DNA of 64,000 nt, from IMG/VR virus record IMGVR_UViG_3300045988_089740; one strand, given 5' to 3'. The DNA is from a virus. The translations under genes and the position numbers were made by a program. This document shows, one piece after another, positions 1,749 through 52,182 of this stretch; positions within the stretch are counted from its first letter, which is position 1, and every line of letters starts with the position of its first letter. The notes under the pieces are model-generated. The model did no database searches. It was given only the letters and a program-made list of their open reading frames with translations, and was not told the DNA's origin.

Positions 1749-2275
1749 ACAGCGTGGTGTTAAAAAGAAAATTCGCAGGGAAACCGGTAACTATGCCTTA
1801 TTCAGCTGCAAAGATTGAAAGAATGCAGCGGATGTTTGATGAGTCCAGAGAAAAAGTTCTGGCAGCTAGAAATGAAGAAATTGAAAAAGCGTATCAGAAA
1901 GGCAAGGAAGACGGGATCAGTAGAAGCGTGAGCGTTTTAAACAAAGTTGTAGAAAACGCAAGGGAAGAAGAAAGAGAGAAAAGCTACAACGCCGGTTTCG
2001 AACAAGGATTTACGGATGGACAGGACTGGGCGAATGTTGAGAACAGCGTAACATTGCTTTTGGCACTGCATAGAGCGTACGACTTTGAACCGGATCAGCT
2101 GATGAACGTAGTGGAAAAGAGTAACAAATATGTGCATCAGGCAAATGAAGGAAAACCAACTATCGGTACTCTTGCACGACAGTTGTACAATGAATGCCAG
2201 ATAAAGTTGTGCGAACACGAAGTGGAAATTTTAAGAAAGTACAGTTTGTTTGAAGAGGGTGATCCATATGATTAA
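1745..2275 (+). CDS. hypothetical protein
   Basis: ATGA overlap with loader stop; charged helical protein, no motif recognised. Confidence 0.5.
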   Translation: MNSVVLKRKFAGKPVTMPYSAAKIERMQRMFDESREKVLAARNEEIEKAYQKGKEDGISRSVSVLNKVVENAREEEREKSYNAGFEQGFTDGQDWANVENSVTLLLALHRAYDFEPDQLMNVVEKSNKYVHQANEGKPTIGTLARQLYNECQIKLCEHEVEILRKYSLFEEGDPYD

Positions 2276-2483
2276 GATAAGCGCAATGTACAAAGATTCC
2301 GGCGGAACAAATCCGTATCACCGATGTGAGGAATGTTTGAGGTACCGGTCTGGAAAACATCCGAGGTGCCTGAACTACAATGGAGATGTGGATTGGAAAC
2401 CAAACTACATTGCTTGCAAATTTTTCGCAGATGAAAAGAAAGATGAAATCAAAGGACAGATGGATATATTTGATTTGTTGTAA
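2268..2483 (+). CDS. small Cys-containing hypothetical protein
   Basis: SD GAGGGTG then ATG 2268; CEECLRY..HPRC cysteine pairs. Confidence 0.45.
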   Translation: MIKISAMYKDSGGTNPYHRCEECLRYRSGKHPRCLNYNGDVDWKPNYIACKFFADEKKDEIKGQMDIFDLL

Positions 2484-2604
2484 AATAAAGTAATTGATTG
2501 ACTAAAAAACGCTAGAATCCATTTTGAGTAAGCTTGCATAGAAATATATGCCTAAGATATTTTGAAAGGATTTTAGACCTTTTCAGCAAAGGAAGGAGTT
2601 TGGC

Positions 2605-2712
2605 ATGAACAAAGCGTTATTACTGGCATTGAACGAACACATATACCTTCAGGGACTAATCAGCAAAGAAATGAAAGAAAAAATTGATATTGAGATTCTT
2701 TCTGAAAATTAA
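2605..2712 (+). CDS. 35-aa ORF upstream of recombinase
   Basis: SD GGAAGGAG before ATG 2605; below ORF-track cut-off; MNKALLLALNEHIYLQGLISKEMKEKIDIEILSEN. Confidence 0.3.
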   Translation: MNKALLLALNEHIYLQGLISKEMKEKIDIEILSEN

Positions 2713-2792
2713 TTCAAAACTATTGAGCGGAGATGAGATAGAAGTTATAATAATCTTATCTCTGCTCTTCCAAACAGAAGGGAGAACGGGGC

Positions 2793-4517
2793 ATGAACGT
2801 TTATCGCACTAGAGAAATACTGAAGACTTGCAGTATTTTCGATCTAAAATTAAAGGTGGCGTTTTACGCAAGAGTAAGCACAGAATCAGAAGACCAACAA
2901 GTTTCCATCCATCACCAGGATGAATATTACAGAAACTTCATTGCTCAAAATAGAAACTGGGTATTTGTTGGGGCGTACATTGACAATGGAATATCGGGAA
3001 TACGAACTGAGAAAAGAGACGAATTTCAACGTATGATGGCAGACGCCAAAGCTGGGAAAATTGATATGATCGTAACGAAAGAAATTACCAGGTTTGCGAG
3101 AAATACCTTAGACAGCATAAAATATACAAGAGAATTACTGATGTATGGCGTATGCGTATGGTTTCAAAACGACAACATCAATACGATTGACGAAGATAGT
3201 GAATTAAGACTTACCATAATGTCCGGAATTGCCCAAGATGAATCAAGAAAACTCTCCAATCGAATAAAATTCGGACATGCGCAGTCAATAAAAAATGGGG
3301 TAGTCCTTGGATCCCGAATATACGGGTACATCAAGAAAGACGGAAAGCTTACGATCGACCCCAAAACAGCTCCGATGATAAAAGAAATATTCGAAAAGTA
3401 TTCTACGGGAGAATGGTCCACATCCGCCATTGAGAAATATCTATACAAAAAAGGATATCGAAATTACAAAGGCGGAAAACTCAGCCGAGATAATATCAAA
3501 AAGATAATCAAGAATCCGAAATACAAAGGCTATTATTGCGGCGGAAAAGTAAAAATTGTCGATATGTTCACTAAAAAGCAAGAGTTTTTGCCAGAGGACG
3601 AATGGACAATGTACAAAGATGACGGGAACCATGTTCCGCAGATTGTAGATGAATCCGTATGGGATAAGGCAAATGTCATTATGCAAACACGGAGCGATGC
3701 GATCAAATCCCACAGAACGTCTTTCAAACAAAATAATTTATTCACTGGATATATCTTTTGCGGTAATGATGGAGCACCGTACTGGATGAAGCAGCACACT
3801 ATAAGAGGGCGTGAAGATGCAAGATGGGTATGTAGCTATCGTATAAAAAACGGAGCGCAAAGCTGTAACTCTTTTGGGATACGTGAGAGAGAATTAAGGG
3901 TGATGCTTGCAGACCTTATCAATAAATCCGGGGATATCCAAACAGCTATTGAAAAATATATAAGCTTGGTTGAAAAGAACATAGACTTCAGCAACGATGG
4001 GGCTGAGATAAGCCGACTTAAAAACATGATTCTCCAGATAGAGAAAAAGAAAGACAAGCTTCTTGACCTGAATCTGGATGGAATCATAACAAACTCTGAA
4101 TACATTGAAAAAAGTGAAAAATTCAAGGATGAAATTGAAAGCATAAACAATAAACTTTCCGAACTGGAATCAAAAGAAGAAGCCAGCAAAGATTTTCATT
4201 TGAAATTAAAAGAAATCGGTATGATATTAAACGATCTACAAGGAGTTTGCCCAGAAGACATCACCAAAACGGTTCTGGGAGAATTTTTGGACAAAATATT
4301 AATAAATCCAAAGGGCCCACAGGAGTGCGAAATTTTGTTCTTTTTAAAGACCGGAGATGTAAAAAAAAAGTCAATAACCGAGCGGGATAAACCGGGCTGT
4401 TCTGAATATTTTTTTTTAAATAAGTTCTCAGAACGACACGCCGTATTTTACAGGAAAATCAACTATGTGGATGGATGCGAAAAGGAATTTAACTACACTT
4501 ACGCATTTGCAATCTAA
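2793..4517 (+). CDS. large serine recombinase (phage integrase type)
   Basis: Resolvase catalytic N-domain AFYARVSTESEDQ (catalytic Ser), recombinase domain, Cys zinc-ribbon (CGNDG..WVCSYR..SC), coiled coil; 574 aa. Confidence 0.9.
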   Translation: MNVYRTREILKTCSIFDLKLKVAFYARVSTESEDQQVSIHHQDEYYRNFIAQNRNWVFVGAYIDNGISGIRTEKRDEFQRMMADAKAGKIDMIVTKEITRFARNTLDSIKYTRELLMYGVCVWFQNDNINTIDEDSELRLTIMSGIAQDESRKLSNRIKFGHAQSIKNGVVLGSRIYGYIKKDGKLTIDPKTAPMIKEIFEKYSTGEWSTSAIEKYLYKKGYRNYKGGKLSRDNIKKIIKNPKYKGYYCGGKVKIVDMFTKKQEFLPEDEWTMYKDDGNHVPQIVDESVWDKANVIMQTRSDAIKSHRTSFKQNNLFTGYIFCGNDGAPYWMKQHTIRGREDARWVCSYRIKNGAQSCNSFGIRERELRVMLADLINKSGDIQTAIEKYISLVEKNIDFSNDGAEISRLKNMILQIEKKKDKLLDLNLDGIITNSEYIEKSEKFKDEIESINNKLSELESKEEASKDFHLKLKEIGMILNDLQGVCPEDITKTVLGEFLDKILINPKGPQECEILFFLKTGDVKKKSITERDKPGCSEYFFLNKFSERHAVFYRKINYVDGCEKEFNYTYAFAI

Positions 4518-14353: not shown

Positions 14354-14514
14354 CCTGTATCAGTACGGATTTATGATAATGAAATAGATATCCAAAACCA
14401 AATTTCCTCCAAATGAGTTACGACTGATACAGGCGTTCCAGGATAAACATAAATATAGCAATGGTGTTTTTGAAGTATATCACGTGCGGCAGGGTTGAGC
14501 GACTGCCGCAACAT

Positions 14515-14586
14515 AGCGCATTGGCGAAGCGGTAACGCACCGGACTTTGACTCCGTTATGCGTGGGTTCGAATCCCACATGCGCCG
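14515..14586 (+). tRNA. tRNA-Gln (anticodon UUG)
   Basis: Cloverleaf by eye: acceptor 6 bp + A1-C72 mismatch, D stem GCG/CGC, anticodon stem CCGGA/TCCGT, loop CUUUGAC, T-arm GTGGG-TTCGAAT-CCCAC. Confidence 0.75.
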
Positions 14587-14802
14587 TTCTGCATCGAGTT
14601 TATATCTTTTTCTTGGTGCAGATTGGATTTTCTTTTTCCTTTTTTAACGAAATACCCTTTAACCACCTATCGCAACGGCGATGACTAAAGGAACAGTCAA
14701 ACGTTCCGGGTGGTTTTAACCTTTGTTGCGGCTGGTGGCCAAGAACTGCAACAGTAGTAAAAAGACAGATATCACATCGACCCTGTATCTTTTTGCTACT
14801 CA
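14587..14802 (+). ncRNA. structured inter-tRNA spacer
   Basis: No ORF; junction AACCACC 14661-14667 / GGTGGTT 14709-14715 enclosing hairpins ATCGC-AACG-GCGAT and GACT..AGTC; further GTTGC..GCAAC stem. Confidence 0.35.
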
Positions 14803-14876
14803 GGAAGCTTAGCTCAGTTGGTCAGAGTAACCGGCTCATAACCGGTCGGTCCTGGGTTCGAACCCCAGAGCTTCCA
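14803..14876 (+). tRNA. tRNA-Met or Ile2 (anticodon CAU), elongator type
   Basis: GGAAGCT/AGCTTCC acceptor, D GCTC/GAGT (C11-G24), anticodon stem ACCGG/CCGGT, loop CUCAUAA, T-arm CTGGG-TTCGAAC-CCCAG. Confidence 0.85.
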
Positions 14877-15410
14877 TTTCTCCCGAAGCTGTCCATCCGT
14901 TTTGTGGATAGAAAAAACTGCCGAATGTGTGTATGTGGGTTGTTTTTCAGAAGGTACGTAACGGCGTAGCCGGATTTGAAAAAGCAACTTCCCGTTCGGT
15001 TCTGTCTCTGAGTTGAATATGTCGCCAATGAGTGCACGTTGACGACAGGGAGTTTTCAAGAGGCATTTCAGGAATAATCCTCCGAAACAACTCCGTGGGA
15101 CTGGCACGGATGAAAACAGTCTAGTGGAAAGCATAACACGATAAACCTATTGCTAACCCGGGAATCCGGGTTATTCGGAATGTGCAAGTAACTGGGAACG
15201 ACCTGGTCGTAGACTAGGTCTTGATGGTTCGAATCCATCCGTTCCGCTTGTCTGGAGCCTGAAAGTTTGGCGTGGGAATAGCGCAGGGCAGCGCATGGGA
15301 ATGTAATTCCGAGTTCCGGACATGTTTGCTGCCTATCGGATTGTAAAGTGGTCTCCCTTAAAGTAGGCAATAAGTGAACGTGTTGAAATGGTTCTTCCAG
15401 ATATGTACAT
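14877..15410 (+). ncRNA. candidate large structured ncRNA between tRNAs (GOLLD/ROOL-like or novel)
   Basis: 534 nt without credible ORF, flanked by tRNAs, many hairpins (e.g. AACCCGG-GAAT-CCGGGTT 15155-15172, GGAAT-GTA-ATTCC, GAAC..GTTC); embeds a tRNA-like unit. Confidence 0.35.
15176..15247 (+). tRNA. aberrant tRNA-like gene (anticodon GUA if canonical register)
   Basis: 72 nt in canonical register: acceptor CGGAATG/CGTTCCG (one G-U), anticodon stem CCTGG/CTAGG, loop UCGUAGA (C33), perfect T-arm GATGG-TTCGAAT-CCATC, but D stem cannot pair. Confidence 0.4.
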
Positions 15411-15482
15411 CGCAGGATGGAGAAGCGGAATCTCGCAAGGTTCATACCCTTGAGAACGGCGGTTCAAATCCGTCTCCTGCAA
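15411..15482 (+). tRNA. tRNA-Met (CAU), initiator-like
   Basis: C1-A72 mismatch and A11-U24 pair (initiator hallmarks); D GAGA/TCTC, anticodon stem CAAGG/CCTTG, loop UUCAUAC, T-arm GGCGG-TTCAAAT-CCGTC. Confidence 0.75.
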
Positions 15483-15598
15483 TTAATCCGTCTATCGTTC
15501 AGCGGATTAAAGCAAATTCTCAATATACCTTCTTTCTATGAATGTGGAACTCAACCCAATTGCTCTTTCATTAGAACAATTGACCGTGACAGACGTCA

Positions 15599-15669
15599 TG
15601 GAATGTAGCTCAGTGGTAGAGCAGTGACTTACAAGTCATGTGTCGCAGGTTCGATTCCTGCCTTTCCGA
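15599..15669 (+). tRNA. aberrant tRNA (Val-like UAC) with 6-nt anticodon loop
   Basis: Good D arm GCTC-AGTGGTA-GAGC and T-arm GCAGG-TTCGATT-CCTGC; anticodon stem GTGAC/GTCAT leaves loop UUACAA (6 nt); acceptor has U1-G72 and U6-U67. Confidence 0.45.
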
Positions 15670-19376: not shown

Positions 19377-19541
19377 ATGAATCAAGTATTTATATTTCTA
19401 GTGATATGTGGAGCGGTAGTAGTATGGTTTCTGCTTTACAAATTATTTCAGCCACTAGGTAAATTATTGAATCACATTGGCAGAAATGCTATTGATGAGT
19501 TAAATAAAGACGAAAGTCAAAAAGAGGAGGACAAAAAATGA
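19377..19541 (+). CDS. small single-TM protein upstream of SPFH gene
   Basis: SD AAAGGGG then ATG 19377; MNQVFIFLVICGAVVVWFLLYKLF... Confidence 0.45.
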   Translation: MNQVFIFLVICGAVVVWFLLYKLFQPLGKLLNHIGRNAIDELNKDESQKEEDKK

Positions 19542-20491
19542 AGAAAGGACTTTTAGGTGGAATTGGATTAGCTGTTGCGATCATTGCAGGGCTTATATGC
19601 GTTGCGAAGTGTAGCGTAAGGGTTCCGGCTGGTTACATTGCAGTAGAGTACAAAATGAACGGAGGGATTTCCAAGAATGTACTTACACAGGGATGGCATT
19701 TGATTTCACCTACAGTAAAAACTTCACTGTATTCTGTTGGAATCGAACAGTCTTATCTTACATCTGAGGATAAAGGCGATTCTCCAAAAGACGAAAGTTT
19801 TAAGACGCCAACAGCAGATGGCAAATCTCTTTTAGTTGATTTGGAATTTTCGTACAAATTCGACCAAAACAGAGTAACCGATGTATTTACTCAGTTTAAA
19901 GGTCAATCCGGGGAATCCGTGAAAAATACCTTTATTAAACCCAAGATGAAAGCATGGACACAGGAAGTAACTGCAAAGTATCCAGTAACAGATGTTTTCG
20001 GTGATAAGCGTCAGGAACTGAATGAAGCACTTGACGAATATCTTAAACAGAAGTTTGAACCATACGGAATTATTATTGATACAGTAAACTTTACTTCTAT
20101 TTCCACCGATGATGAAACACAGGCTGCAATCCAAAAGAAAGTAAATGCACAGCAAGAGCTTGAATTGGCCAACATTGAAGCTAAAACAGCCAAAGTACAA
20201 GCCGATAAAGATAAAGAAGTTGCACTGATTGCTGCTGAACAGGAAAAAGAAAGAGCAGCTATTCAGGCAGAACAAGCCAAAATTGATGCAAAAGGCAAAG
20301 CTGAAGCTATTAAGATTAAAGCTGAAGCCGAAGCGGAAGCTAACAGAAAGATTGCAGAATCACTTACCCCTGAACTGATTGAAAAACAGAAGATTGATAA
20401 ATGGAATGGCGAGGTTCCGAAGATTCAGGGAAGCAACACTTCTACTATCGTAGACACAAGAGATATGACAGTTGATGAGAATGCTGAATAA
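19538..20491 (+). CDS. SPFH/band-7 (prohibitin-like) membrane protein
   Basis: N-terminal TM, GYIAVEYKMNGG..QGWHLISP core, long A/E/K-rich coiled-coil tail typical of SPFH proteins. Confidence 0.7.
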   Translation: MKKGLLGGIGLAVAIIAGLICVAKCSVRVPAGYIAVEYKMNGGISKNVLTQGWHLISPTVKTSLYSVGIEQSYLTSEDKGDSPKDESFKTPTADGKSLLVDLEFSYKFDQNRVTDVFTQFKGQSGESVKNTFIKPKMKAWTQEVTAKYPVTDVFGDKRQELNEALDEYLKQKFEPYGIIIDTVNFTSISTDDETQAAIQKKVNAQQELELANIEAKTAKVQADKDKEVALIAAEQEKERAAIQAEQAKIDAKGKAEAIKIKAEAEAEANRKIAESLTPELIEKQKIDKWNGEVPKIQGSNTSTIVDTRDMTVDENAE

Positions 20492-26563: not shown

Positions 26564-26751
26564 GCGGGCATAGCCTTGATGAAAACAGCCAGTCACCGTC
26601 TGTAGCTAGTGTTACACATAAGTATACAGAAAGCGAGCTGTCCAGTATGACAGTGGCTCAACTGAGACAGCTTGCAAGTGACAATGGTTATGCCCTGACT
26701 TCCACAAACAAGGCTGGTATCATATCAGAGATTATAGCACAGCAAGGGTAG
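26551..26751 (+). CDS. candidate -1 frameshift extension of capsid protein (HeH/Rho-N-like tail)
   Basis: Slippery A_AAG_GGG 26551-26557 in capsid frame; -1 frame open to TAG 26749-26751; ..MTVAQLRQLASDNGYALTSTNKAGIISEI resembles HeH/Rho-N motif; no SD or ATG for an independent gene before 26647. Confidence 0.4.
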   Translation, partial: KGGISGHSLDENSQSPSVASVTHKYTESELSSMTVAQLRQLASDNGYALTSTNKAGIISEIIAQQG

Positions 26752-26761
26752 GTGAAATGGC

Positions 26762-27085
26762 ATGGACGAACAGCTTACAAGTGATCTAGCAATGTATCTG
26801 GAAGGTGATGAACAGACTGCAAGGATGATTCCTTTGGCAGTCAAAAGAGCTATTCGGTCATTCCAGAAAAAACGCAATTATCCTGAGAGTTATACGGAAG
26901 AAAACATCAATAAAGATATGGACAAATGCTATGATTGTATTTTCGATTTGGCTCTTTATTTTCTTGTGAAACAGGGAGTTGAGTTTGAAACATCTCATTC
27001 GGAAAATTCTGTAAATGCAGGATGGAACTCCGAAACAGAGATATTTGTCAATCATGGCGTTTTTCCATTTGCCAGAGGAATCTGA
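26762..27085 (+). CDS. head-tail connector (gp6-like) protein
   Basis: ~107 aa directly after capsid gene; positional and size inference. Confidence 0.45.
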   Translation: MDEQLTSDLAMYLEGDEQTARMIPLAVKRAIRSFQKKRNYPESYTEENINKDMDKCYDCIFDLALYFLVKQGVEFETSHSENSVNAGWNSETEIFVNHGVFPFARGI

Positions 27086-27197: not shown

Positions 27198-27509
27198 ATG
27201 GGATGTGAACAGAATTGCTTTAACGAACACCGCTTAGAAGAATTGGAAAAAGTTGTTCACGAAATGAAAGAGAAACATTCTAAACGTGACGGAATTTTTT
27301 TTGAACGTATCAATGCGCTTGAGACCAAAATCGTTCTTTACAACAATAATCTCGGACACATAAAAAAAACGGTAGATGAAATGAATGATAATTTAAAATC
27401 CCTTATGGAAGCCCCGGCAAAACGCTACGATACGATTGTTGTTTGCGTTATCACAGCAGTAATCGGGGCTATTGTAGGGTTTGCGTTAAGCGGTATTTTT
27501 CCGGTATAA
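27198..27509 (+). CDS. XhlA-like (haemolysin XhlA family) membrane protein
   Basis: N-terminal coiled coil (LEELEKVVHEMKEK..) and C-terminal TM IVVCVITAVIGAIVGFALSGIF, typical XhlA architecture. Confidence 0.5.
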   Translation: MGCEQNCFNEHRLEELEKVVHEMKEKHSKRDGIFFERINALETKIVLYNNNLGHIKKTVDEMNDNLKSLMEAPAKRYDTIVVCVITAVIGAIVGFALSGIFPV

Positions 27510-27547
27510 CAAGCAATTCCACTTGTAAGGGAGGATGGTGGAATTAT

Positions 27548-27802
27548 ATGAATTATACAGACTTTTCAGAAGATGAAAGAAAGTTTTATCTAAGTGAATC
27601 CGGGTTTGATTCCCGAGAAAAAGAGTTTTTCCGGTTGAGAGTTTATGAGGAAAAGACGTTGTTTGAAACAGCAGAGATTATGGGGTATAGTCCTAGAACC
27701 ATTGACCGTATAAACCGAAAAGTAAAAAAGAAGATTGTTAAAGTTGCCCCGATGTACTATCGGGGCTTTTCTTTGTATCATGGCGAAAACATGGCGAAAT
27801 AG
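27548..27802 (+). CDS. small sigma-70 region-4 / LuxR-type HTH protein
   Basis: SD GGGAGGATGGTGG; REKEFFRLRVYEEKTLFETAEIMGYSPRTIDRINRKVKKKI. Confidence 0.5.
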   Translation: MNYTDFSEDERKFYLSESGFDSREKEFFRLRVYEEKTLFETAEIMGYSPRTIDRINRKVKKKIVKVAPMYYRGFSLYHGENMAK

Positions 27803-27878
27803 TGTCGTTTAAATACTTAAGTTTCTCCCCTATAATATAAGTATAGAGAAAAGCTTACAGAGATGGGAGGAACACACT

Positions 27879-28379
27879 ATGGCATTTTATCCATATTATC
27901 CACAACCATTGAACCCATATCCACAAACACCGGTACAACCGTATCAAGATAGATTGGCACAGTTGCAGAACAACTACCAACAGGCAATGCCTTATGGACA
28001 GACACAAATACAACAACCGGTACAACAGATGCCACAGGTTGCCATGCTTCCGGGACAGATGGTTGATGGTATTGACACTGTAAAAGCAAAGGATGTGGAT
28101 ATGACCGGGAATCCTGTCTATTATCCAAAAACAGATGGTACAGAAATATATAAAAAGCAACTACAGGCAGACGGAAAAAGCAGAATTTTTGTTTACCGGA
28201 TTATTGATCCAGACGAACAGCAGCAACCAAAGCCCGAAGAAAAACCGATTGACATAGAAGCTATGTTTAATCAGCTGCGGAACGATGTTTGTTCTGAGAT
28301 TTCTGAAATAAAGAGCATGTTCCCAACGCAGATGCCGGGAACACCGGAACCCAAACAGAATGGAGGGAAACAGAGATGA
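27879..28379 (+). CDS. Gln/Pro/Tyr-rich low-complexity protein
   Basis: Promoter TTTAAA 27808-27813 /17/ TATAAT 27831-27836; MAFYPYYPQPLNPYPQTPVQPYQ... Confidence 0.55.
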   Translation: MAFYPYYPQPLNPYPQTPVQPYQDRLAQLQNNYQQAMPYGQTQIQQPVQQMPQVAMLPGQMVDGIDTVKAKDVDMTGNPVYYPKTDGTEIYKKQLQADGKSRIFVYRIIDPDEQQQPKPEEKPIDIEAMFNQLRNDVCSEISEIKSMFPTQMPGTPEPKQNGGKQR

Positions 28380-28621
28380 GCTTCAACCCAAACGCCATGA
28401 TGAAAATGCAAGTTGAAAGAATGATTTCTCAGAGGTTCGGAAGTGTTGATAACATGATGAACGATATGAGTAAATTTGCAGGAAATAATCCAACATTGAA
28501 AAATGCTTTGGATTTGTATAAAAAAGGTGACACAAACCAGTTACATCAAATACAGCAAAATGTATTTAATGAAAAACACTTATCACCAGACGGAATTATC
28601 CAGAAATTCCTTGGATTATAA
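28376..28621 (+). CDS. hypothetical protein, 81 aa
   Basis: ATGA coupling to upstream gene. Confidence 0.5.
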   Translation: MSFNPNAMMKMQVERMISQRFGSVDNMMNDMSKFAGNNPTLKNALDLYKKGDTNQLHQIQQNVFNEKHLSPDGIIQKFLGL

Positions 28622-28717
28622 CACTTCCCCATGATTGGGTGATTTAAAATCGCTACAATTTGGGATGACAGCCGCGGATGTCTCCTATTGTAAATAATAT
28701 TTAAGGAGACTAAAAAC

Positions 28718-29530
28718 ATGATGAATGGTTCTAATTACAGTCTTAGCGACATTGCAGCTGCTACAGGCTCTAATAACCGTGCCAATGACATGTGGGGCGG
28801 CGATGGTTTTTCACTTATTTGGCTCGTGCTGATCTTCGCAATCTTCGGATGGGGAGGTTTCGGCGGCTGGGGCGGTGGCTTCGGCGGTAATGGTGGAAAT
28901 GGTGCAAACGGTGCCGGTTTCCAAGGATGGGCTACACGTGCCGATATCAATGAGAGCTTTGCTCTTAACGATATCCAGAACGGTATCAGAGGTATTCAGC
29001 AGGGTATCTGCGACAGCACATATGCGCTCAACAATACCATGCAGAGCGGTTTCAACGGCATGAACGTTGGAATGCTTCAGGGCTTCAATGGCGTTCAGCA
29101 GGCAATCAATGCTGATACTGTAGCCGGTATGCAGAATACCAATGCATTACAGTCTCAGTTAGCAAACTGCTGTTGTGAAACCAGGGAAGCTATCCAGGGC
29201 ATCAACTACAACCTGGCTACCAACACTTGTGCTCTTCAGAACACAATGAACAACAACACCAGAGATCTTCTGGAAAATCAGAACAGCAACACGAGAGCAA
29301 TCCTTGATTTCCTGACAAATGATAAGATTGCAACATTACAGGCAGAGAACTCTGACCTGAAACGTGCTGCATCTCAGGATCGCCAGAGTGCACTGCTTAC
29401 AACTGCAATGGCTTCTCAGACACAGCAGCTCATTAATGCAATCAATCCGGCAGCTATCCCGGCATACGTTGTTCCGAATCCAAACACCTACTACGGTGGA
29501 TGCAACGGATACAGCAACGGTTGCTGCTAA
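28718..29530 (+). CDS. TM + Gly/Trp-rich, Asn/Gln-rich, Cys-terminated protein
   Basis: SD AAGGAG; FSLIWLVLIFAIFGW TM, WGGFGGWGGGFGGNGGNGANGAGFQGW, CCC motif, C-terminal GGCNGYSNGCC. Confidence 0.55.
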   Translation: MMNGSNYSLSDIAAATGSNNRANDMWGGDGFSLIWLVLIFAIFGWGGFGGWGGGFGGNGGNGANGAGFQGWATRADINESFALNDIQNGIRGIQQGICDSTYALNNTMQSGFNGMNVGMLQGFNGVQQAINADTVAGMQNTNALQSQLANCCCETREAIQGINYNLATNTCALQNTMNNNTRDLLENQNSNTRAILDFLTNDKIATLQAENSDLKRAASQDRQSALLTTAMASQTQQLINAINPAAIPAYVVPNPNTYYGGCNGYSNGCC

Positions 29531-29607
29531 GTAACTCACCCTTAGAGGTTGACTAATTCTAAGAGGTGGGTTGTGGCTCACCTCTTATTTGATTGAGAGG
29601 TAGAAGT

Positions 29608-30033
29608 ATGAGTTGTAAAAACGTTTGTAAGCTCTGCAATCGTCTTGTGATAAGCCAAGCTGTTGCATTTACTGGTGGTAATCTTGTGATTACACTTCCA
29701 GCAGGTAGTTATAACAATGGTGAAAAATATTGCATTGTGATTGCACAGAGCATACCAGAAACCACTACGATTAACGCTCCGGTGATGATTCAAATAGGAA
29801 CGGGAACAACCCTGTATCCATTACAGAATCGTTGCTGTGCACAGGTTACGGCTTGTGGCGTAAGAACCAGAACGAAGTACGCAACCAGAGTAGCCACAAA
29901 TGCAACCGGTGGAGTGTTCAAGATGTTAGGGAATCCGGCTTGTAGTCCGAGTAACAATTTGACAGCAATTAATGGTACAGCCCCAACAGCAGATACACCT
30001 GTTACACAGGCTGTTAGAAAGGGGGCACTGTAA
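29608..30033 (+). CDS. Cys-rich beta-type protein, 141 aa
   Basis: SD GAGAGG then ATG 29608; MSCKNVCKLCNR.. and RCCAQVTAC. Confidence 0.5.
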   Translation: MSCKNVCKLCNRLVISQAVAFTGGNLVITLPAGSYNNGEKYCIVIAQSIPETTTINAPVMIQIGTGTTLYPLQNRCCAQVTACGVRTRTKYATRVATNATGGVFKMLGNPACSPSNNLTAINGTAPTADTPVTQAVRKGAL

Positions 30034-30659
30034 TGCATAAAGTTGCAATGGAAATGGGAAAATGGGCTATGGAAAAAGCCAAGACACATGGCTTCGATAA
30101 TCTCAGTGCTCAAGACTGGGACGATCTGAAGGACTGCATGGAATCCGTAAAGTGTGCGATTTGTGCAGATAAAGATTACAGAATCGTAGAAGCTATGGAC
30201 GAATGCGAACAGGAAGAGAAGTATCTTGGACGCATGGGATATGACAGGTATCGTTACGCAAACGGCAGATTCGCCCCGAAAGGCAAAGGAAGTCGTATGG
30301 GATATAAACCATATCTGTACATGGAAGATGATGACTGGATGGACGAGTATCTGAACAATCCAGAGTTCGAACGTAATATATACCGCATGGGTTATCATCC
30401 AGACCGTAGTGATATGAGGATGGATGGAATGAACCATAAGCAGTCCAGATACGGTGAAACCTACGACAGATACAGTGAAAATCGCAGGCATTACCACGAT
30501 TCCAATGATACAGAATCCAAGAGAAAAATGGACGAGTCCATGAAAGAGTATACACAAGATGTCATCCGCACGATGTCTGAAATGTGGTCGGATGCAGACG
30601 CGAATCTCAAACAGCAGATAAGAACTGATCTGACCCGTCTGATACAGCAGATGAATTAA
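30033..30659 (+). CDS. Tyr/His/Asp-rich protein with three RMGY repeats
   Basis: TAATG overlap at 30033; LGRMGYDRY, GSRMGYKPY, IYRMGYHPD. Confidence 0.55.
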   Translation: MHKVAMEMGKWAMEKAKTHGFDNLSAQDWDDLKDCMESVKCAICADKDYRIVEAMDECEQEEKYLGRMGYDRYRYANGRFAPKGKGSRMGYKPYLYMEDDDWMDEYLNNPEFERNIYRMGYHPDRSDMRMDGMNHKQSRYGETYDRYSENRRHYHDSNDTESKRKMDESMKEYTQDVIRTMSEMWSDADANLKQQIRTDLTRLIQQMN

Positions 30660-30711: not shown

Positions 30712-30728
30712 AATTACGGAGATTGATT

Positions 30729-31055
30729 ATGGAGAAATGCAAAATAAATGTTCTTGGAACGGATTACAGAATTATTCCGAAAGAATTAAAAAATGCAGAT
30801 GTTGATGGTTATACAGACAATACATCAAAAGAAATTGTCATTAGAATAGACAATGCGAATAATGTTGGAGATTTTGATTTCTTACAGAAAAAACAGTTGA
30901 GGCATGAAATTATTCATGCATTCTTGTCGGAAAGCGGATTGCAGTGTAATTGGCAACATACAGAACAGTTCGGACATGACGAAACTACTGTTGACTGGTT
31001 TGCAATTCAATCTCCAAAGATTTTTGAAGTATTCAAAGAGCTTGATTTAATTTGA
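30729..31055 (+). CDS. small HExxH metallopeptidase-like protein
   Basis: RHEIIHAF motif; ATG 30729 after GGAG (track start TTG 30723). Confidence 0.45.
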   Translation: MEKCKINVLGTDYRIIPKELKNADVDGYTDNTSKEIVIRIDNANNVGDFDFLQKKQLRHEIIHAFLSESGLQCNWQHTEQFGHDETTVDWFAIQSPKIFEVFKELDLI

Positions 31056-35947: not shown

Positions 35948-36241
35948 ATGGATCAGATCATGAACTATGTGAAACCGGAACTTCTGGTTGTAGCTGTAGT
36001 CCTGTATTTTGTAGGCGTATTTCTCAAACAGGCTGAAACCGTAGCTGACAAATACATTCCTGGAATCCTTGGACTTCTGGGTGTGGTTATTTGTGGAATC
36101 TATGTTTTCGCTACATCTACAGTCACAGGCGGTCAGGAAGTTGCAATGGCAATCTTTACCGCAATCACACAAGGTATTCTTGTTGCAGGGCTGAGCACTT
36201 ATGTGAATCAGGTCATTAAACAAGTAAGCAAAGAAGAGTAG
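35948..36241 (+). CDS. holin-like membrane protein (phi-LC3/LL-H holin type)
   Basis: NYVKPELLVVAVVLYFVGVFLKQ..IPGILGLLGVVICGIYV..AIFTAITQGILVAGLSTYVNQ matches this holin family as I recall it. Confidence 0.55.
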   Translation: MDQIMNYVKPELLVVAVVLYFVGVFLKQAETVADKYIPGILGLLGVVICGIYVFATSTVTGGQEVAMAIFTAITQGILVAGLSTYVNQVIKQVSKEE

Positions 36242-42833: not shown

Positions 42834-43043
42834 ATGAAGCCATATGGATTAGTTGACAGAAATATTATACTCAACAATAGTCTATCGTTGGAAGCAAAAG
42901 GAATATACGGCATATTGATGAGCCTTGATGGAACAGACTTTGAACTGGATGAAATCTGCGAATATGTTTCAGAGAGCAAATCAGTTGTCGAAAAAGCTTT
43001 AAACGAATTGGTAAATCATGGATTTATTTCATTCGAAAAATAA
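42834..43043 (+). CDS. small winged-helix DNA-binding protein
   Basis: LSLEAKGIYGILMSL..ELDEICEYVSESKSVVEKALNELVNHGFI; second ATG has better SD spacing. Confidence 0.45.
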   Translation: MKPYGLVDRNIILNNSLSLEAKGIYGILMSLDGTDFELDEICEYVSESKSVVEKALNELVNHGFISFEK

Positions 43044-43055
43044 TACGGTAAAACC

Positions 43056-43107
43056 AACAGGCTTACCCGACGGGGGACAAGCGGAAATGCCTTGCCGCCT
43101 GCCTGTT
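43056..43107 (+). repeat. hairpin repeat X1 flanking HNH gene
   Basis: AACAGGC/GCCTGTT stem; shares AGGCT...CCTGCCT frame and loop words with X2. Confidence 0.4.
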
Positions 43108-43158
43108 GATTTACATACATTTCAAGGCATCTTATATACGAAAGGCAGGTATTTTTCT

Positions 43159-43524
43159 ATGGCAAAATCTTTTAATTACCGTAAATATTACAAAGACTAT
43201 TATGGGATTGATTTCGACAGTAGCTATGTAATCCACCATATTGACTTTGACAGAAGCAACAATGATATTAATAATTTAATTTTATTACCTTCGAAGTTAC
43301 ATAGCCGATATCACTTTTTGTTAACTGGATTTAATCCTGATAAAAACAATAAAGGAATTGCAAGTCTTGATTTTAAAATCGTCTCAGAATGCGGGAGCAT
43401 CCCTATGTTTGGAATAAACATGATGAAAAATTTGTGTGAAACAATGGTAGAAATTGATAAATGGGTAAGAATAAAATCCGACATGGATAAAGAAAAATAC
43501 AATAAAGAAAAGTACGGTATTTAA
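43159..43524 (+). CDS. HNH endonuclease
   Basis: VIHHIDFDRSNNDINNLILLPSKLHSRYH = HNH motif; internal ATG 43159. Confidence 0.7.
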   Translation: MAKSFNYRKYYKDYYGIDFDSSYVIHHIDFDRSNNDINNLILLPSKLHSRYHFLLTGFNPDKNNKGIASLDFKIVSECGSIPMFGINMMKNLCETMVEIDKWVRIKSDMDKEKYNKEKYGI

Positions 43525-43538
43525 TATTTAGTTAAATT

Positions 43539-43597
43539 CAGTAGGCTAGGTTGGCCGCCGAAAAGTGTAAACCTTGATGCACCTGCCTACTGTTTTT
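43539..43597 (+). repeat. hairpin repeat X2 flanking HNH gene (terminator-like)
   Basis: CAGTAGGC/GCCTACTG stem + U5. Confidence 0.4.
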
Positions 43598-43657
43598 ATA
43601 AATCAAGGATTCTGGCATATTATGGAGATGCCAACGACCAACAAGGAGGTTATCATT

Positions 43658-44635
43658 ATGAACAAAGAGTTTAATTATCCAAGAGATTTTAAAGGAGTAT
43701 GGATCCCGAAACAGGTTTTTCTTGATGAAAGATTAAATGCGATTGAAAAATTGATTCTGGCAGAAGTCGACAGTCTTGATGTAGAAGGAAGCGAAGGATG
43801 CTTTGCGAGCAATGAATATTTAGCAAATTTCTGTCAATGCAGTGTAACAAAAGTTTCTACTTCTGTTTCCAAGTTAATAAAGCTTGGATATCTTTATGTG
43901 CTTAAAAATGACGGAAGAAAAAGGTACTTAAAGAGTAGGCTTTCAAATTTTGAAAGCCAGGAATTTAAAAACAGTAATTCAGACACGCCAAATATGAAAC
44001 ATAGTAATAATAGTTATGAATACAGTGTAGATGATATAGATAAAGACTTTATTTTATCAAATAAAGAGAAAAAGACTTTACCAAAGAATGGTAAAGGTTC
44101 AAAGACTTCTGCTCCTAATAATATTAATATACTAGATATAAATAATATACCCTCACGGACAACTGAGCAGAAGGAAGTGTACCGCAAGCAAAAACAGAAA
44201 AATCGTTCTGAGAAATACCGGGACGAAGATGTACCACAGATTCTGTATAATGAGTTTGATTCACTGTATGGTGAACAGGAGAATATTCTGGAAGATCATG
44301 ACATCTGTCTGACCATGGCAGTTATCGCTTATTACTTCAAGCAGTACCGGGAGCACATGGGCGAACAGCATATAATGATTTCAACCAAATACGCAAATCA
44401 GTTCATGGGAGTTATCATTGGCGATGATTCGCCACTTCTGAAAGCGGACGTGGAAGAAAAAGATGAACTCCGGTTCTATCAGGACATGATAGACGAGTTT
44501 TTTAAATCAGACCTTGGTCAGCGAAATGGAAAAGACTTCGATCGTCATATCTGGCTGTTCTTCACTGAAGAGAATCAGAGAATCTTGTGTGAACGGGTAA
44601 AGCAGAAATGGGATAACCAAGAATACATTGACTAA
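43658..44635 (+). CDS. wHTH (DnaD/replisome-organizer N-like) domain protein
   Basis: SD AAGGAGG then ATG 43658; FKGVWIPKQVFLDERLNAIEKLILAEVDSL...SKLIKLGYLYV. Confidence 0.45.
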   Translation: MNKEFNYPRDFKGVWIPKQVFLDERLNAIEKLILAEVDSLDVEGSEGCFASNEYLANFCQCSVTKVSTSVSKLIKLGYLYVLKNDGRKRYLKSRLSNFESQEFKNSNSDTPNMKHSNNSYEYSVDDIDKDFILSNKEKKTLPKNGKGSKTSAPNNINILDINNIPSRTTEQKEVYRKQKQKNRSEKYRDEDVPQILYNEFDSLYGEQENILEDHDICLTMAVIAYYFKQYREHMGEQHIMISTKYANQFMGVIIGDDSPLLKADVEEKDELRFYQDMIDEFFKSDLGQRNGKDFDRHIWLFFTEENQRILCERVKQKWDNQEYID

Positions 44636-50100: not shown

Positions 50101-50561
50101 CAAGCGCCGCATTGAACAGGGTAGCTTATCTGTCATCGGCAACACGATCAAATAAAGCCGCATTGACGGTATCGGCCCAGTGGGGTTCGAGTAACTATAC
50201 TACAAACACTTTATATAACGATTCTGCTTCCGATATCCGATTAAAAGAGAATGTTTTAGACTGCGAAATTAATGCTCTTGATGCGGTCTGCAAAATGCCG
50301 GTATGCTCATTCGACTGGAAAGAAACTGGCGTCCATCAGCCGCTCGGACTTGTTGCAGATGATATTGAAAAAATAGATCCGTTACTGGCACTAGGCGGTG
50401 GTGAGAACGAAGACGGAAGCATGAATGTTAAGCAGATTGACAGGCTTCTTCTGACCGAATATGCAATTAAAGCAATCCAGGAACTGTCAGCTACAGTAAA
50501 AGAGCAGAGCTGCAAGATTAGAAAATTGGAGGGAAAATTGGATGGAATTAAAGGGAATTGA
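47193..50561 (+). CDS. tail-associated lysin/fibre (Tal-like) with C-terminal S74 intramolecular chaperone domain
   Basis: TTG start after GGAGGTG; 1122 aa; C-terminus SDIRLKENV..DAV..MPV..F.WKE....LGLVADDIEKI matches peptidase S74 auto-cleaving chaperone. Confidence 0.7.
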   Translation: MRYVSSRFKTEQNNDNRNYLKYADITLTDGTVLNLTNTDFWSNGMKFEDSVSDDSAFTIGSANINTVNLSINNFDEKYTDYDFTNAEVICYVGLEVEPTSGTEKEIEKIRICTMTVVDTPYQDTTIIELTCEDNMRKFDRDYSESKLKYPATRRQIIQDACNVCGVTLDTLSFDQDSYQIVTRPDDDALTFRQVLAWVCQIGCQYARCDRYGRLTIKWYDTEIVDANRIEINSTSKFTPNLDDVVITGVRVTEYIEATSDDKTASSYLYGNEGYVLEISENKLIPQGTGETVAAMIGEKCVGMSFRPFETQCLTDISIEAGDAVLITDRKGNKYKSFLTNVVLQPGVFEQISCNAESAARNSSKQYSLITQTVVDARKSVQKEKAQRELALEEFEKRLDKSSGVFTTIETQEDGSKIFYLHDKPKLSESQGIWRMTAEAWGVSNDGGNTWNGGMTVDGDAIVRILEAVGVNANWINAGAITVKDAEGNLLFSVDMDTKSVYISGNVQIGGGKTFDDTLKEFAASAKNMTIQLSNEYQGIPVNSDGNYINFPECSTQVTVMYGAQDITENCSYTITESQNISGSWDEVEHTYTVESLTADSGWIDIRATYLENLSVSKRFTIAKQYAGEQGTAGRTYFINADADILLMGADKKITPNVLNLRPYYRDGQEDAKNFYAWWTIEKSVDNGSSWEDISTYSTSMKLIQIQLNALSLEAHDMIRASAYADKEKTILCDQQTFPVALDVSALSQKDIVEILSNNGAWKGLYYLNNELYVSFNAALGGILTLGGQNNGNGLLILLDDEGSEIGRMSSGGMSFRNSDNNIVIRINKSGMFFYDSTGQKRKVLTDSSGITMYTDYTDANNWKAIKIGKYGIYAAEKSGGAEDLWMEGDTSHQWDGYILRFLNGAVRLNANAVYTDGCSMGKNLTTSGTLSVSGDTGLKGDAYVAGNFSFRDYKEEEANTSTRRRPVSSASAALNRVAYLSSATRSNKAALTVSAQWGSSNYTTNTLYNDSASDIRLKENVLDCEINALDAVCKMPVCSFDWKETGVHQPLGLVADDIEKIDPLLALGGGENEDGSMNVKQIDRLLLTEYAIKAIQELSATVKEQSCKIRKLEGKLDGIKGN

Positions 50562-52182
50562 CGTATCATCTAATCAGGGGAAACCGGACTGGGCGAAAGT
50601 GGCTAAATCCGGCATTAAATTCGCCATTTTAAGAATCCATCAGAAAACAGGTGTTGACAGCTCATTCGAGTACAACTACAAGGGATGCAAGAGCAACGGA
50701 ATTCTTGTCGGTGGATACAAATATTCTTACGCTCTGACACCGGCACAGGCGATTGACGAAGCAGAAGATGTGATTGCCGCACTGAACGGGCGGGGACTGG
50801 ACTTCCCAGTGTTCTATGACCTCGAGTGGTCTAATCAACGAAAGCTCGGCAAACAGGCAGTTGAAAACATTGCGGTCGCATTTCTGACAAGGATGAAAAA
50901 AGCCGGTTATAAGGTCGGCATCTACTGCAATCTGGACTGGTATAATAACGTTCTGACTGATGCACTCAGAAAGTATGAGTGCTGGATTGCTCATTACCCA
51001 GACCCCGACAATGGGACAATGCAAACAAGAGTAAAACCAAAAGCAGGAATTGGCTGGCAGTATTCCAGCAAAGGAAAAGTATCCGGTATCAGCGGAAATG
51101 TCGATATGGATGTGTTCTACAAAGACTATAGAGGAACGACACAGAAAGGAGAAACAACAGTGGTTAAAACAAAATTACAGAAATTTCTTGAACTTGGTGA
51201 TTATTATGCTTCAAACGGCGGATATCTAGAAAAGAAGAGCGATGCTTATCTGGATGATTTCAAAAAGAACGCCGGTTATAACAACTACACCAGATTTGCC
51301 CGTGATGTAAATTCCTGGGGGCAGCCGGGTTGCCAGGCTCAGCCATGGTGTGCAGAGTACCAGTTCTGGAAGCTGGTGAATGTTCTGGGAATCACAAGAA
51401 CATTGCAGATTATGGGCGGTGGATTCTATAACTGCAAGAGCATCACAAATCACGCCAAAAGCAATGGAACATGGCACAAATCACCAAAAGTAGGTGCGTT
51501 GATTATATTTCGTAACGGTTCCCATGTTGGCTCTGTCCGCAGTTTCAATGGTAGTGCCGTATATACTAACGAGGGAAATACTTCCAGTGCTGCCGGTGTG
51601 GTTGCAAATGGCGGAGCTGTACGCAACAAATCCTACGCTATCAACGATTCTGCAATCGACGGATATGTTTGGATTGACTGGGGAAGCGAGGGACAGACTG
51701 CGACTTGGAAAGCAACCGGTACAGCTACTTCCACAGCAGACGATTTATATGTCCGTGAAAGCCCGAACGGATATGTTCTCGGAAAAATTAACAAAGGAAA
51801 CCGTGTTGAGATCAATGGAGAAAAGTCCGGTGCATGGACTAAGATCAAGGTCGCTGGAATCGGAATCGGCTGGGCTGCTACGAAGTATCTTGCTGTTGAT
51901 GGGGCAAAAAATGTGGCTGCAACTGCAACAACAATCGCCAAAAAGCAAGACAAGAACCAGAGGTTGTACACTGGACAGGTTACGGCTTCCAGCCTGAACG
52001 TCCGCACATGGGCTGGAGCAGAGTATCCGAACATCAAAAAATATCCGACATTGAACAAAGGAAACAAGGTTGATGTTATGAACTTCACTCAGAAAGCAAG
52101 TGACGGTAACTCTTGGTACTACATCCGCATTGCTGGAAAGTACTTTGGATTCGTTTCCGCAAAATATATCAAAAAGGTATAA
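50542..52182 (+). CDS. endolysin: GH25 muramidase + CHAP + two SH3 domains
   Basis: GIDVSSNQG..FAILRI..DLEW (GH25); QPWCAEY..GSHVGSV (CHAP Cys/His); two SH3-like C-terminal repeats. Confidence 0.8.
   Translation: MELKGIDVSSNQGKPDWAKVAKSGIKFAILRIHQKTGVDSSFEYNYKGCKSNGILVGGYKYSYALTPAQAIDEAEDVIAALNGRGLDFPVFYDLEWSNQRKLGKQAVENIAVAFLTRMKKAGYKVGIYCNLDWYNNVLTDALRKYECWIAHYPDPDNGTMQTRVKPKAGIGWQYSSKGKVSGISGNVDMDVFYKDYRGTTQKGETTVVKTKLQKFLELGDYYASNGGYLEKKSDAYLDDFKKNAGYNNYTRFARDVNSWGQPGCQAQPWCAEYQFWKLVNVLGITRTLQIMGGGFYNCKSITNHAKSNGTWHKSPKVGALIIFRNGSHVGSVRSFNGSAVYTNEGNTSSAAGVVANGGAVRNKSYAINDSAIDGYVWIDWGSEGQTATWKATGTATSTADDLYVRESPNGYVLGKINKGNRVEINGEKSGAWTKIKVAGIGIGWAATKYLAVDGAKNVAATATTIAKKQDKNQRLYTGQVTASSLNVRTWAGAEYPNIKKYPTLNKGNKVDVMNFTQKASDGNSWYYIRIAGKYFGFVSAKYIKKV

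Follow-up and report, generated by a model that had tools for sequence, protein, structure and literature searches.

The morons of lambdoid phages are promoter-gene-terminator units carried in late operons, HK97 gp15 being an example, and the BclA filament of the exosporium joins a collagen-like stalk to a C1q/TNF-like knob, BclA_C. We describe here a gene cassette that has something of both. It lies at positions 27198–30659 of IMG/VR virus record IMGVR_UViG_3300045988_089740, a stretch of 64,000 nucleotides of viral DNA (hereafter, the window) that represents part of a tailed-phage genome of ~77–80 kb, the size being taken from related contigs. As in morons, the cassette is autonomous, has a promoter-like site and flanking terminators, sits between morphogenesis genes, is variably present, and includes a membrane protein. 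Unlike a moron, it comprises not one gene but six to nine, conserved as an operon that brings its own regulator and operator repeats, and it is also found in virulent phages, hence it is not simply a lysogenic-conversion element. With BclA it shares the stalk-plus-knob logic, although in the cassette the stalk is helical and made as a polypeptide distinct from the knob, some hosts do not sporulate, and the knob protein (P6) does not match BclA_C. In kind, the cassette is a moron-type accessory unit carrying a stalk-and-knob payload. A single self-contained accessory operon comprises genes P2 to P7, joined in this lineage by P1 upstream and by P8 and P9 downstream; in it, a sigma-region-4 helix-turn-helix (HTH) gene is followed by operator-like repeats spaced by 11 bp, a promoter-like site, five genes (P3–P7), and a terminator. 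Besides the HTH, XhlA-like, and HExxH proteins, no component falls in a described family; the system is uncharacterised, and literature searches found neither a description of the cassette genes nor virion proteomics for any carrier phage. The elements of the region are as follows (aa, amino acids; TM, transmembrane).

27198..27509, + strand: P1, XhlA-like bitopic membrane protein with coiled-coil N-terminus and C-terminal TM segment; phrog_937 'hemolysin' at 8.4e-14
27548..27802, + strand: P2, 84-aa sigma-70 region-4-type HTH protein, presumed activator of the P3–P7 promoter; PF04545 at 1.5e-5, TIGR02937 at 4.3e-8
27746..27766, + strand: terminator-like hairpin with 9-bp stem (6 G-C pairs) and T-run, inside the 3' end of P2
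27779..27799, + strand: two exact CATGGCGAAA direct repeats, 11 bp start to start, candidate P2 operator
27808..27836, + strand: promoter-like site TTTAAA-17-TATAAT, 10/12 consensus matches
27879..28379, + strand: P3, 166 aa; phrog_21718 at 7e-17; 657 homologue clusters
28376..28621, + strand: P4, 81-aa helical protein; in related loci, P3 is followed by a P4 homologue or by an analogue of equal size
28718..29530, + strand: P5, 270 aa; phrog_16490 at 4.6e-67; at least 7,980 homologue clusters at 90 % identity
29560..29587, + strand: hairpin/terminator-like element with 12-bp stem, between P5 and P6
29608..30033, + strand: P6, 141-aa stand-alone beta-sandwich protein; 4,547 homologue clusters; most conserved gene of the region
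30033..30659, + strand: P7, 208 aa
30678..30707, + strand: strong terminator-like hairpin with 13-bp stem and T-run, closing the P3–P7 unit
30723..31055, + strand: P8, 110-aa HExxH metallopeptidase-like protein, HEIIH at residue 61; phrog_1233 at 1.8e-20; homologues in loci L029 and L031
31074..31460, + strand: P9, 128-aa HExxH metallopeptidase-like protein, HELGH at residue 60; phrog_1233 at 6.2e-8

An earlier note, made from the letters of this DNA, had drawn attention to these genes, and all the open reading frames (ORFs) and motifs that it named exist, every ORF lying on the + strand behind a Shine-Dalgarno site. P3, P5, and P6 have hundreds to thousands of homologue clusters, and the ORFs are real genes and not due to chance. 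The homologues of P3, P5, and P6 are all labelled 'hypothetical', and Pfam domains occur only in a few chimeric members. The same note spoke of five coupled ORFs; this holds for P3/P4 (4-nt overlap, ATGA) and P6/P7 (1-nt overlap), the only places where translational coupling is seen, whereas gaps of 96 nt and 77 nt separate P4 from P5 and P5 from P6, the latter enclosing the hairpin.

The recurrence of the cassette was followed by iterative hidden Markov model (HMM) searches over 36 diverse loci, comprising the window, phage records, and contigs from metagenome-assembled genomes (MAGs) of Oscillospiraceae, Ruminococcus, Acutalibacteraceae, Faecousia, and others. P5 is present in all 36, P3 in 35, the P7 family in 31, and P2, upstream of P3, in 26. 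Gene order is constant: P2, in some modules a protein that we call PX, then P3, P4, P5, a knob protein, and P7, sometimes with a HExxH protein of the P8/P9 type next. PX, which occurs in 15 related modules and is absent from the window, has ~125–135 aa and invariant Cys and His, is Cys/His/Asp peptidase-like, and has no family match in Pfam or PDB. The module is found in three kinds of position: after an endolysin or holin in ~9 loci (L001, L002, L006, L009, L013, L016, L021, L026, and L027), between portal/MuF and scaffold/major capsid protein (MCP) genes in ~8 (Dulem virus 35, Bajarodcaudo virus 2, L017, L020, L024, L028, L030, and L031), and, in the window lineage, after the gene at 26762. 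Homologues of P5 are also encoded by Butyrivibrio phage Ceridwen and by the Clostridium perfringens phages CPD1, XP41-N3, 17DYC, HMD-PC1, PMQ04, and CPQ4, and CPD1 has most of the module (CPD1_036–043), CPD1_039 and CPD1_040 being its P5 and P6 homologues.

Among 64 relatives with 85–99 % MCP identity and enough downstream sequence, 60 carry the full module and 4 lack P5–P11 or P3–P11, as seen in 21 kb of each deletion contig. Two contigs from different samples (L123 and L124) share the same junction, running from the connector through P1-P2-P3-P4 directly to the homologue of the gene at 34391; L196 keeps only P3; and in L190 a tyrosine-recombinase gene takes over after the start of P2, followed by the 34391 homologue. 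The recombinase gene (11922–13064 of L190, a 380-aa ORF) stands exactly where P3–P11 would sit, and a site-specific recombinase may be involved in cassette loss or exchange. Because the cassette recurs at three positions and is missing from 4 of the 64 relatives, we consider it accessory and not core virion machinery. The idea that it is embedded in a morphogenesis region that would otherwise run straight on is borne out by its own controls, its other positions elsewhere, and the four relatives that pass directly to the 34391 homologue. The same reading had named the flanking genes 'connector' (26762) and 'head closure' (34391); Pfam and PHROG back neither name, and the positions of both genes are consistent with these roles.

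Conservation was measured as mean identity to the window in 44 more distant members of the lineage:

Portal, 78.6 %; MCP, 83.3 %; connector, 67.5 %
P1, 64.7 %; P2, 78.7 %; P3, 78.1 %; P4, 84.3 %
P5, 86.5 %; P6, 93.8 %; P7, 88.6 %; P9, 88.8 %

Some members combine divergent P4 and P5 (30 and 43 % identity) with the same P6, and strong constraint and recent exchange of the P4–P9 block are both plausible explanations for the high conservation. The block also receives insertions: in some relatives, L075 among them, the P5/P6 gap holds a 279-aa Cys-rich homing-endonuclease-like gene (9066–9905 of L075) and the P7/P9 gap an antisense TnpB-like gene (11270–12406 of L075, − strand), both insertions falling at the hairpin/terminator sites. 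In a chicken-gut Ruminococcus MAG (L029), a thioredoxin-reductase/AhpF-like gene of 550 aa (1588–3240) stands just upstream of the module; the gene may belong to the host, at the edge of the prophage, or may have a functional link to the Cys-rich module.

Control of the operon appears to be its own. The most likely start of P2 is the ATG at 27548, preceded by a GGAGG ribosome-binding site, and not the TTG at 27443, and the sigma-region-4 HTH assignment proposed for it proved right: the PF04545 match is above the Pfam cut-off, TIGR02937 aligns at positions 116–163, and the best named matches are to region 4 of SigF/SigG-type sigma factors. Since region 4 alone aligns in Pfam and NCBIfam, with region 2 not matched, P2 is a region-4-type HTH protein and not a sigma factor. 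The separate promoter claimed downstream of it is present as a sequence and fits its context, but such sites are no commoner than in shuffled DNA (21 versus 22.2 between 26.5 and 34.5 kb), and TTTAAA-17-TATAAT alone is not significant. What makes the site credible is its surroundings, namely the hairpin at 27746–27766, the CATGGCGAAA repeats upstream, which end 9 nt before the −35-like hexamer, and the equivalent repeats in distant modules. In three of these (L012, L020, and L031), three repeats of a different sequence, again spaced by 11 bp, occupy the same place; a spacing kept while the sequence changes is what an operator co-evolving with the adjacent HTH protein would look like. The site is of sigma-A type, the only type covered by the consensus scan. 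Terminator-like sites are enriched between 26.5 and 34.5 kb, with 14 found versus 5.5 ± 2.1 in shuffles.

A membrane protein accompanies this regulator. In at least 12 loci, a bitopic membrane protein of 93–145 aa or an XhlA-like one is encoded directly upstream of P2, the first kind having a VPYIVYE..ARxERhIKRL motif followed by a TM segment and an acidic Gly/Asn/Asp tail, and the second resembling P1. P1, which had been called XhlA-like, has the phrog_937 match and a C-terminal TM segment (residues 79–97; KD19 maximum 2.7 at residue 79), but XhlA is absent among its Pfam matches at E ≤ 1, and the xhlA-xhlB-xlyA setting is missing: an HTH gene follows, with the holin and the endolysin lying far off, at 35948–36241 and 50542–52182. 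The N-terminal part of P1 gives only weak coiled-coil-type matches, and a second PHROG, phrog_1193, matches at 8.6e-5. P1 travels with P2 in the window lineage and in Dulem virus 35, a P1 homologue adjoins a P2 homologue in L003, and P1 is kept in deletion variants too. The VPYIVYE-type family (TM segment, W.QYDY, acidic GNDGDIYNG-type tail; L006, L008, L010, L013, L014, L016, L026, L027, and L003) is always paired with the sigma-region-4 HTH gene and has no PHROG function; by analogy, it may act like an anti-sigma factor. A sigma-region-4 protein beside a single-pass membrane protein, upstream of presumed targets, is reminiscent of extracytoplasmic function (ECF) sigma/anti-sigma pairs, UviA-UviB, and TcdR-TcdE. 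In contrast with those pairs, P2 has just 84 aa and lacks region 2, and the membrane proteins adjacent to it match no anti-sigma or holin family.

P5 is the hub of the cassette. From a short acidic N-terminal tail, it runs through a hydrophobic stretch (residues 31–45, WGGFGGWGGGFGGNGGNG) flanked by Trp and Gly, a Gly/aromatic linker, and a helical region to a Pro-rich end that closes in a Cys cluster (..GGCNGYSNGCC). In the family alignment, the FGWGG that comes after the hydrophobic helix is invariant, and C98, the CCC motif at 151–153, C171, the Pro-rich PAYVVPNP, and the terminal Cys are conserved. NTxxL motifs are found at residues 140, 169, 180, and 191. The AlphaFold2 (AF2) model is all-helical over residues 86–242, with a pLDDT of 43, a confidence too low for the model to serve as the structural check that had been proposed. 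Every homologue, those from crAss-like, Bacteroides, and archaeal viruses included, retains the hydrophobic stretch, and no basic residues flank it in the homologues inspected, where Trp, Gly, or Phe take their place, unlike in the genuine bitopic proteins encoded next door, which show clear Lys/Arg flanks. From its sequence, the segment looks like a bilayer-matched helix without assignable topology, or like a post-translationally inserting peptide.

In its N-proximal hydrophobic helix, long Cys-bearing helical domain, and Pro-rich end, P5 resembles spanins (Rz/Rz1) and the class III holin T of phage T4, and in the crAss-like phage cr109_1 a P5 homologue stands next to a holin and a LysB/FtsL-like gene, after both. 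Spanins differ in that P5 has no lipoprotein partner, most of its hosts are monoderm or archaeal, and the phage encodes a canonical holin and endolysin elsewhere; P5 matches no spanin or holin PHROG. The succession of a helical NTxxL rod and a beta-sandwich recalls trimeric coiled-coil fibres with knobs, such as reovirus sigma-1, the Sf6-type needle, and the autotransporter stalks with Asn at position d, whereas in the cassette the trimer is putative, periodicity is weak, the knob is in a separate gene, and the N-terminus is of a lipid type instead of a capsid-binding tail. Several other ideas about P5 were abandoned. A type IV prepilin-like reading ('G|FSLIW...') fails as the motif is not conserved in homologues; a double-glycine leader served by a C39-like peptidase was rejected since PX has no family match and is not in the window; and apparent fusions with an SGNH hydrolase (P0168 and P0170) look like deletions or assembly chimeras, the partner gene lying 3 kb downstream in L058.

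The reach of P5 extends well beyond phages of Clostridia. Homologues with the same layout, a Gly/Trp-flanked hydrophobic helix and a central CCC, occur in many crAss-like phages (local HMM E-value 9.4e-33), in the Bacteroides uniformis phage C3_41T2LP (1.7e-37), and in Methanomassiliicoccales viruses (2.3e-10), the crAss-like and Bacteroides versions having the terminal Cys cluster too. In the archaeal virus vir335, the homologue precedes a secreted protein and a multi-TM protein, and in C3_41T2LP small look-alike proteins come after it, then a 'PolyVal metallopeptidase'. The presence of the whole module in Bacteroides, crAss-like, and archaeal viruses was considered and rejected: only P5 and, weakly, the HExxH peptidase are homologous, the other neighbors being alike in size and composition only. 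Other annotators have labelled crAss-like P5 homologues 'outer capsid protein/viral fiber' or 'spike protein'. The hosts of crAss-like, B. uniformis, Methanomassiliicoccales, and Butyrivibrio viruses do not sporulate. Because P5 reaches virulent phages and non-sporulating hosts, a role in the spore coat or in lysogenic conversion is disfavoured. According to PMC8375218, crAss-like phages are not known to lysogenise, which would suit a role in the lytic cycle. The spread of P5 across host types favours a function independent of the type of host envelope.

P6 starts at the ATG at 29608, as its homologues begin with MSCKN or MACKN. It has Cys at C3-x3-C7-x2-C10 (CX3CX2C), five further conserved Cys, and the motif RCCAQVTAC. 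The AF2 model is a beta-sandwich (strands within residues 12–105; core pLDDT about 80, overall 62.6) preceded by a low-confidence N-terminal arm that holds C3, C7, and C10. A P6 profile run against 1.84 billion representatives found 380 clusters at 50 % identity, nearly all stand-alone proteins starting at the Cys-rich N-terminus; longer matches, tried as fusions, join P6 to unrelated genes and look like chimeras or deletions. P6 has no significant match to a structure in PDB, whether by sequence (none at E ≤ 10) or by Foldseek, where a phage baseplate/tail-fibre chain ranks best with an E-value of 0.1. As in Ena pilins, which are DUF3992 jellyrolls with an N-terminal Cys connector, P6 joins a small beta-sandwich to a flexible Cys-rich arm and has further Cys in the body; an Ena-like identity was nevertheless rejected, with no DUF3992 match in Pfam, no PDB-sequence match, and Foldseek matches in PDB that include no Ena chain.

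Where a locus has no P6 homologue, the slot holds a protein of 135–157 aa that ends in ..NANLIxxRVA/C. This alternative knob fills the slot after P5 in about half of the related modules, and 4 of 14 members match BclA_C (PF18573) over their full length, with a best E-value of 4.4e-7; these matches are sub-threshold, one member with a reported score reaching 23.5 bits versus a cut-off of 38. The family profile has no PDB sequence match. P6 itself gives no Pfam match to BclA_C at E ≤ 1, and homology between it and the BclA_C-like slot proteins was rejected (hhalign probability 0.1 %). The resemblance to exosporium proteins suggested by the earlier note has one echo, at sub-threshold level, in the alternative slot protein, but none in the P6 of the window, which matches neither BclA_C nor Ena.

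P3 is built of a Q/P/Y-rich N-terminal third (Q 26 %, P 18 %, and Y 11 % in the first 62 aa), a conserved central domain of ~60 aa, and a charged coiled-coil tail. P7 has helical ends around a low-complexity center rich in Arg/Tyr/Asp/Met (R/Y/G/S/D-rich), with RMGY repeats at residues 67, 88, and 118; the three repeats and the abundance of Tyr and Asp noticed before are there, whereas His, said to be abundant as well, makes up just 2.9 %. Inspection of the translations of P3, P4, P6, and P7 found no signal peptide or lipobox, and profile searches of PDB with the P3, P5, and PX families gave no match. PADLOC models returned only coiled-coil noise (E ≥ 1.5e-3), so that no known anti-phage defence system was matched. 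P9 comes after P7 in L004, L005, L011, and L015 and weakly matches the 'PolyVal metallopeptidase' of C3_41T2LP; in Pfam, P8 and P9 have only weak matches, to Peptidase_M78 (0.17) and DUF6782 (0.21). A MuF-type head protein in L031 (4371–6341) ends in a HEFGHC motif that resembles HELGHC of P9, a likeness in sequence that would tie proteins of the P8/P9 type to the 'polyvalent' cargo associated with MuF. Downstream of the cassette, the fibre-like gene P11 (31688–33337, 549 aa) keeps its N-terminal ~150 aa and has its C-terminal part swapped among relatives, with versions of 755 aa in L075 (13196–15463) and containing an SGNH hydrolase in L058 (12984–13877); it is lost along with P5–P9 in L123 and L124.

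How might these parts work together? The reading that we tentatively place first, as a possible one, is that of a late-made, membrane-inserting stalk-and-knob complex acting at the membrane of the infected cell. P2 would switch the operon on late in infection, and the bitopic membrane protein encoded next to it, here P1, may gate P2 much as anti-sigma factors gate their partners. P5 would be the stalk, a long helical rod, probably oligomeric, tied by its CCC knot and C-terminal Cys cluster, and its N-proximal segment, flanked by Trp and Gly and devoid of basic residues, would insert into a lipid bilayer. P6, through its Cys-rich N-terminal arm, would cap the Cys-rich end of P5, a putative contact; elsewhere, a BclA_C/C1q-like trimeric knob would occupy the P6 slot. 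The low-complexity proteins P3, P4, and P7 (Q/P/Y- or R/Y/D-rich) may be adaptors or assembly factors, and the HExxH proteins may process one component. The weakest step is to identify this bilayer with the infected cell's cytoplasmic membrane. The complex would come into play when infection ends or afterwards, serving egress, membrane disruption, or exclusion, and would not be part of the virion. We rank the infected-cell membrane first because of the bilayer-type helix, the membrane-protein and lysis-gene neighbors, the separate regulation, and the dispensability of the cassette.

Several observations weigh against this model. No Pfam, PDB, defence, or NCBIfam family accounts for P3–P7, for which PADLOC and NCBIfam were empty. 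The P5 model is of low confidence, and hydrophobic periodicity is weak, near 3.6–3.67. The topology of P5 cannot be called, there being no positive-inside signal, and insertion of the segment may be post-translational, as it is for segments of virion proteins. Having no signal peptides, P3, P4, P6, and P7 would meet an extracytoplasmic P5 stalk only after a membrane lesion. Cys clusters suit an extracellular oxidised product, for instance a virion, better than a cytoplasmic one. In the BFVD, the P6 model matches family members and, weakly (E 1e-3 to 1e-2), C-terminal domains of phage fibres, including a T7-type fibre, a hyaluronidase fibre, and a collagen-like fibre. Some 8 module loci lie inside the head-gene block beside MuF, and adjacency to lysis genes may merely reflect the end of late operons as a common insertion site. 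Finally, since absence from the four deletion contigs was judged from 21 kb each, these phages may hold a relocated copy elsewhere.

Owing to the fibre-tip-like fold, the Cys chemistry, the positions in head modules, and the links to MuF and peptidases, two readings that involve the particle keep substantial weight. The first, which we regard as unlikely though a serious competitor, is an accessory fibre of the virion, with P5 trimers capped by P6 on the head or neck, near the fibre-like gene at 31688, the Cys being cross-linked after release and the hydrophobic N-terminal segment buried in the particle or in the trimer. The structural matches of P6, including the baseplate/tail-fibre chain that comes out best in PDB, the BclA_C-like alternative knob, the crAss-like annotations as fibre or spike, the head-module loci, and a chemistry fit for an extracellular particle all speak for it; the P6 model and the fibre or spike labels also make unsafe the former statement that these proteins do not resemble virion proteins. 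This fibre is harder to reconcile with a module carried by phages whose capsid and tail genes differ, and in non-structural positions (CPD1 and C3_41T2LP), where no generic docking site is apparent, or with the regulator, promoter, and terminators that the cassette brings along. The Trp-flanked hydrophobic helix resembles a bilayer-spanning segment; P6, at 93.8 % identity versus 83.3 % for MCP, shows the opposite of what is usual for receptor-binding tips; and relatives without the cassette exist.

The second particle-based reading, a quite improbable one, has the proteins loaded in the head like MuF-linked cargo and leaving it with the DNA, P5 then inserting its fusion-peptide-like segment in the cytoplasmic membrane of the target cell and so aiding entry of the genome, which bacterial and archaeal infections have in common. 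Placement of the module directly after portal and MuF genes in ~8 loci would be natural in that case, as would the similarity between the MuF protein of L031 and P9, the 'PolyVal metallopeptidase' that ends the Bacteroides-phage version, the lack of basic flanks around the P5 stretch (as in post-translationally inserting segments), and a cross-domain spread that fits a target common to all hosts. A folded beta-sandwich and a Cys-knotted rod are, however, poorly suited to passage through a tail tube, a tape measure protein of 1,613 aa is already present, and the cassette is dispensable in relatives and has its own regulator.

Lysogenic conversion, in which a prophage would give cross-linkable spore-coat or exosporium proteins to the spore of its host, is highly improbable. 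The Cys/Tyr/Gly-rich compositions that had inspired the idea are real, a BclA_C-like protein does exist in the alternative slot, the SigF/SigG-type matches of P2 would suit it, and many hosts are Clostridia, C. perfringens included. Yet P5 homologues are present in virulent crAss-like phages and in B. uniformis, Methanomassiliicoccales, and Butyrivibrio viruses, the P6 of the window gives a match to neither BclA_C nor Ena, the cassette is co-oriented with the late genes, and its promoter-like site is of sigma-A type, which makes a spore-coat or exosporium function unlikely. The bacteriocin-like alternative can hardly be right either: a Gly-rich, membrane-active P5 released through holin-like P1 and sigma-like P2 in UviA/UviB or TcdR/TcdE style would account for the Gly/Trp-rich hydrophobic region, the pairing of regulator and membrane protein, the weak match of P1 to a PHROG family of 'bacteriocin production or immunity' (E 0.062), and the peptidase-like PX of 15 related modules, but there is no transporter or immunity gene, P5 has 270 aa with a long conserved helical domain, its conservation and cross-domain spread are the opposite of what narrow-spectrum bacteriocins show, P2 with region 4 only is not a TcdR/UviA-type sigma factor, and PX has no Pfam or PDB match.

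The closest genome match to the window is an uncultured Ruminococcus MAG, and related genomes are Clostridia MAGs. The other genes of the window that served as landmarks are these:

20565: terminase
22837: portal
25529: MCP
35948–36241: holin, among tail genes
37792: tape measure protein, 1,613 aa
50542–52182: endolysin

The late region is heavily mosaic, with the holin placed among tail genes and an HNH endonuclease and a replication-initiator-like gene (43018–43524 and 43574–44635) between the tape measure and distal tail genes. Directly upstream of the large terminase is a protein with an SPFH/Band-7 domain (19538–20491; PF01145 at 7.3e-21), an unusual site for a membrane-scaffold-type protein. 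A tRNA gene cluster at 14514–15669 comprises tRNA-Gln(ttg), two tRNA-Met(cat), and an odd call whose anticodon has two bases. Between MCP and the gene at 26762, a short ORF (26600–26751) has the C-terminal end SMTVAQLRQLASDNGYALTSTNKAGIISEIIAQQG and, by eye only, a putative helical domain of Rho-N/HeH type.

P5 and P6 are among the commonest unannotated gene families of gut phages, and their conservation exceeds that of the capsid protein encoded alongside them. Viral genes seldom span host phyla, let alone domains, as P5 does; this argues for a host-independent function. We see some chance, albeit a limited one, that the cassette represents an unrecognised class of viral membrane-active apparatus, made of a Cys-knotted helical rod, a fusion-peptide-like segment, and a detachable beta-sandwich cap, and encoded by a self-regulated mobile operon. 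If so, this apparatus would act, in entry or egress, on the cytoplasmic membrane common to all hosts, hence its spread in viruses of gut Clostridia, Bacteroidota, and methanogens. As the unit is compact and self-regulated and has cultured carriers (CPD1, 17DYC, Ceridwen, and C3_41T2LP), its function is directly testable and, once known, would annotate thousands of 'hypothetical' genes in one go.

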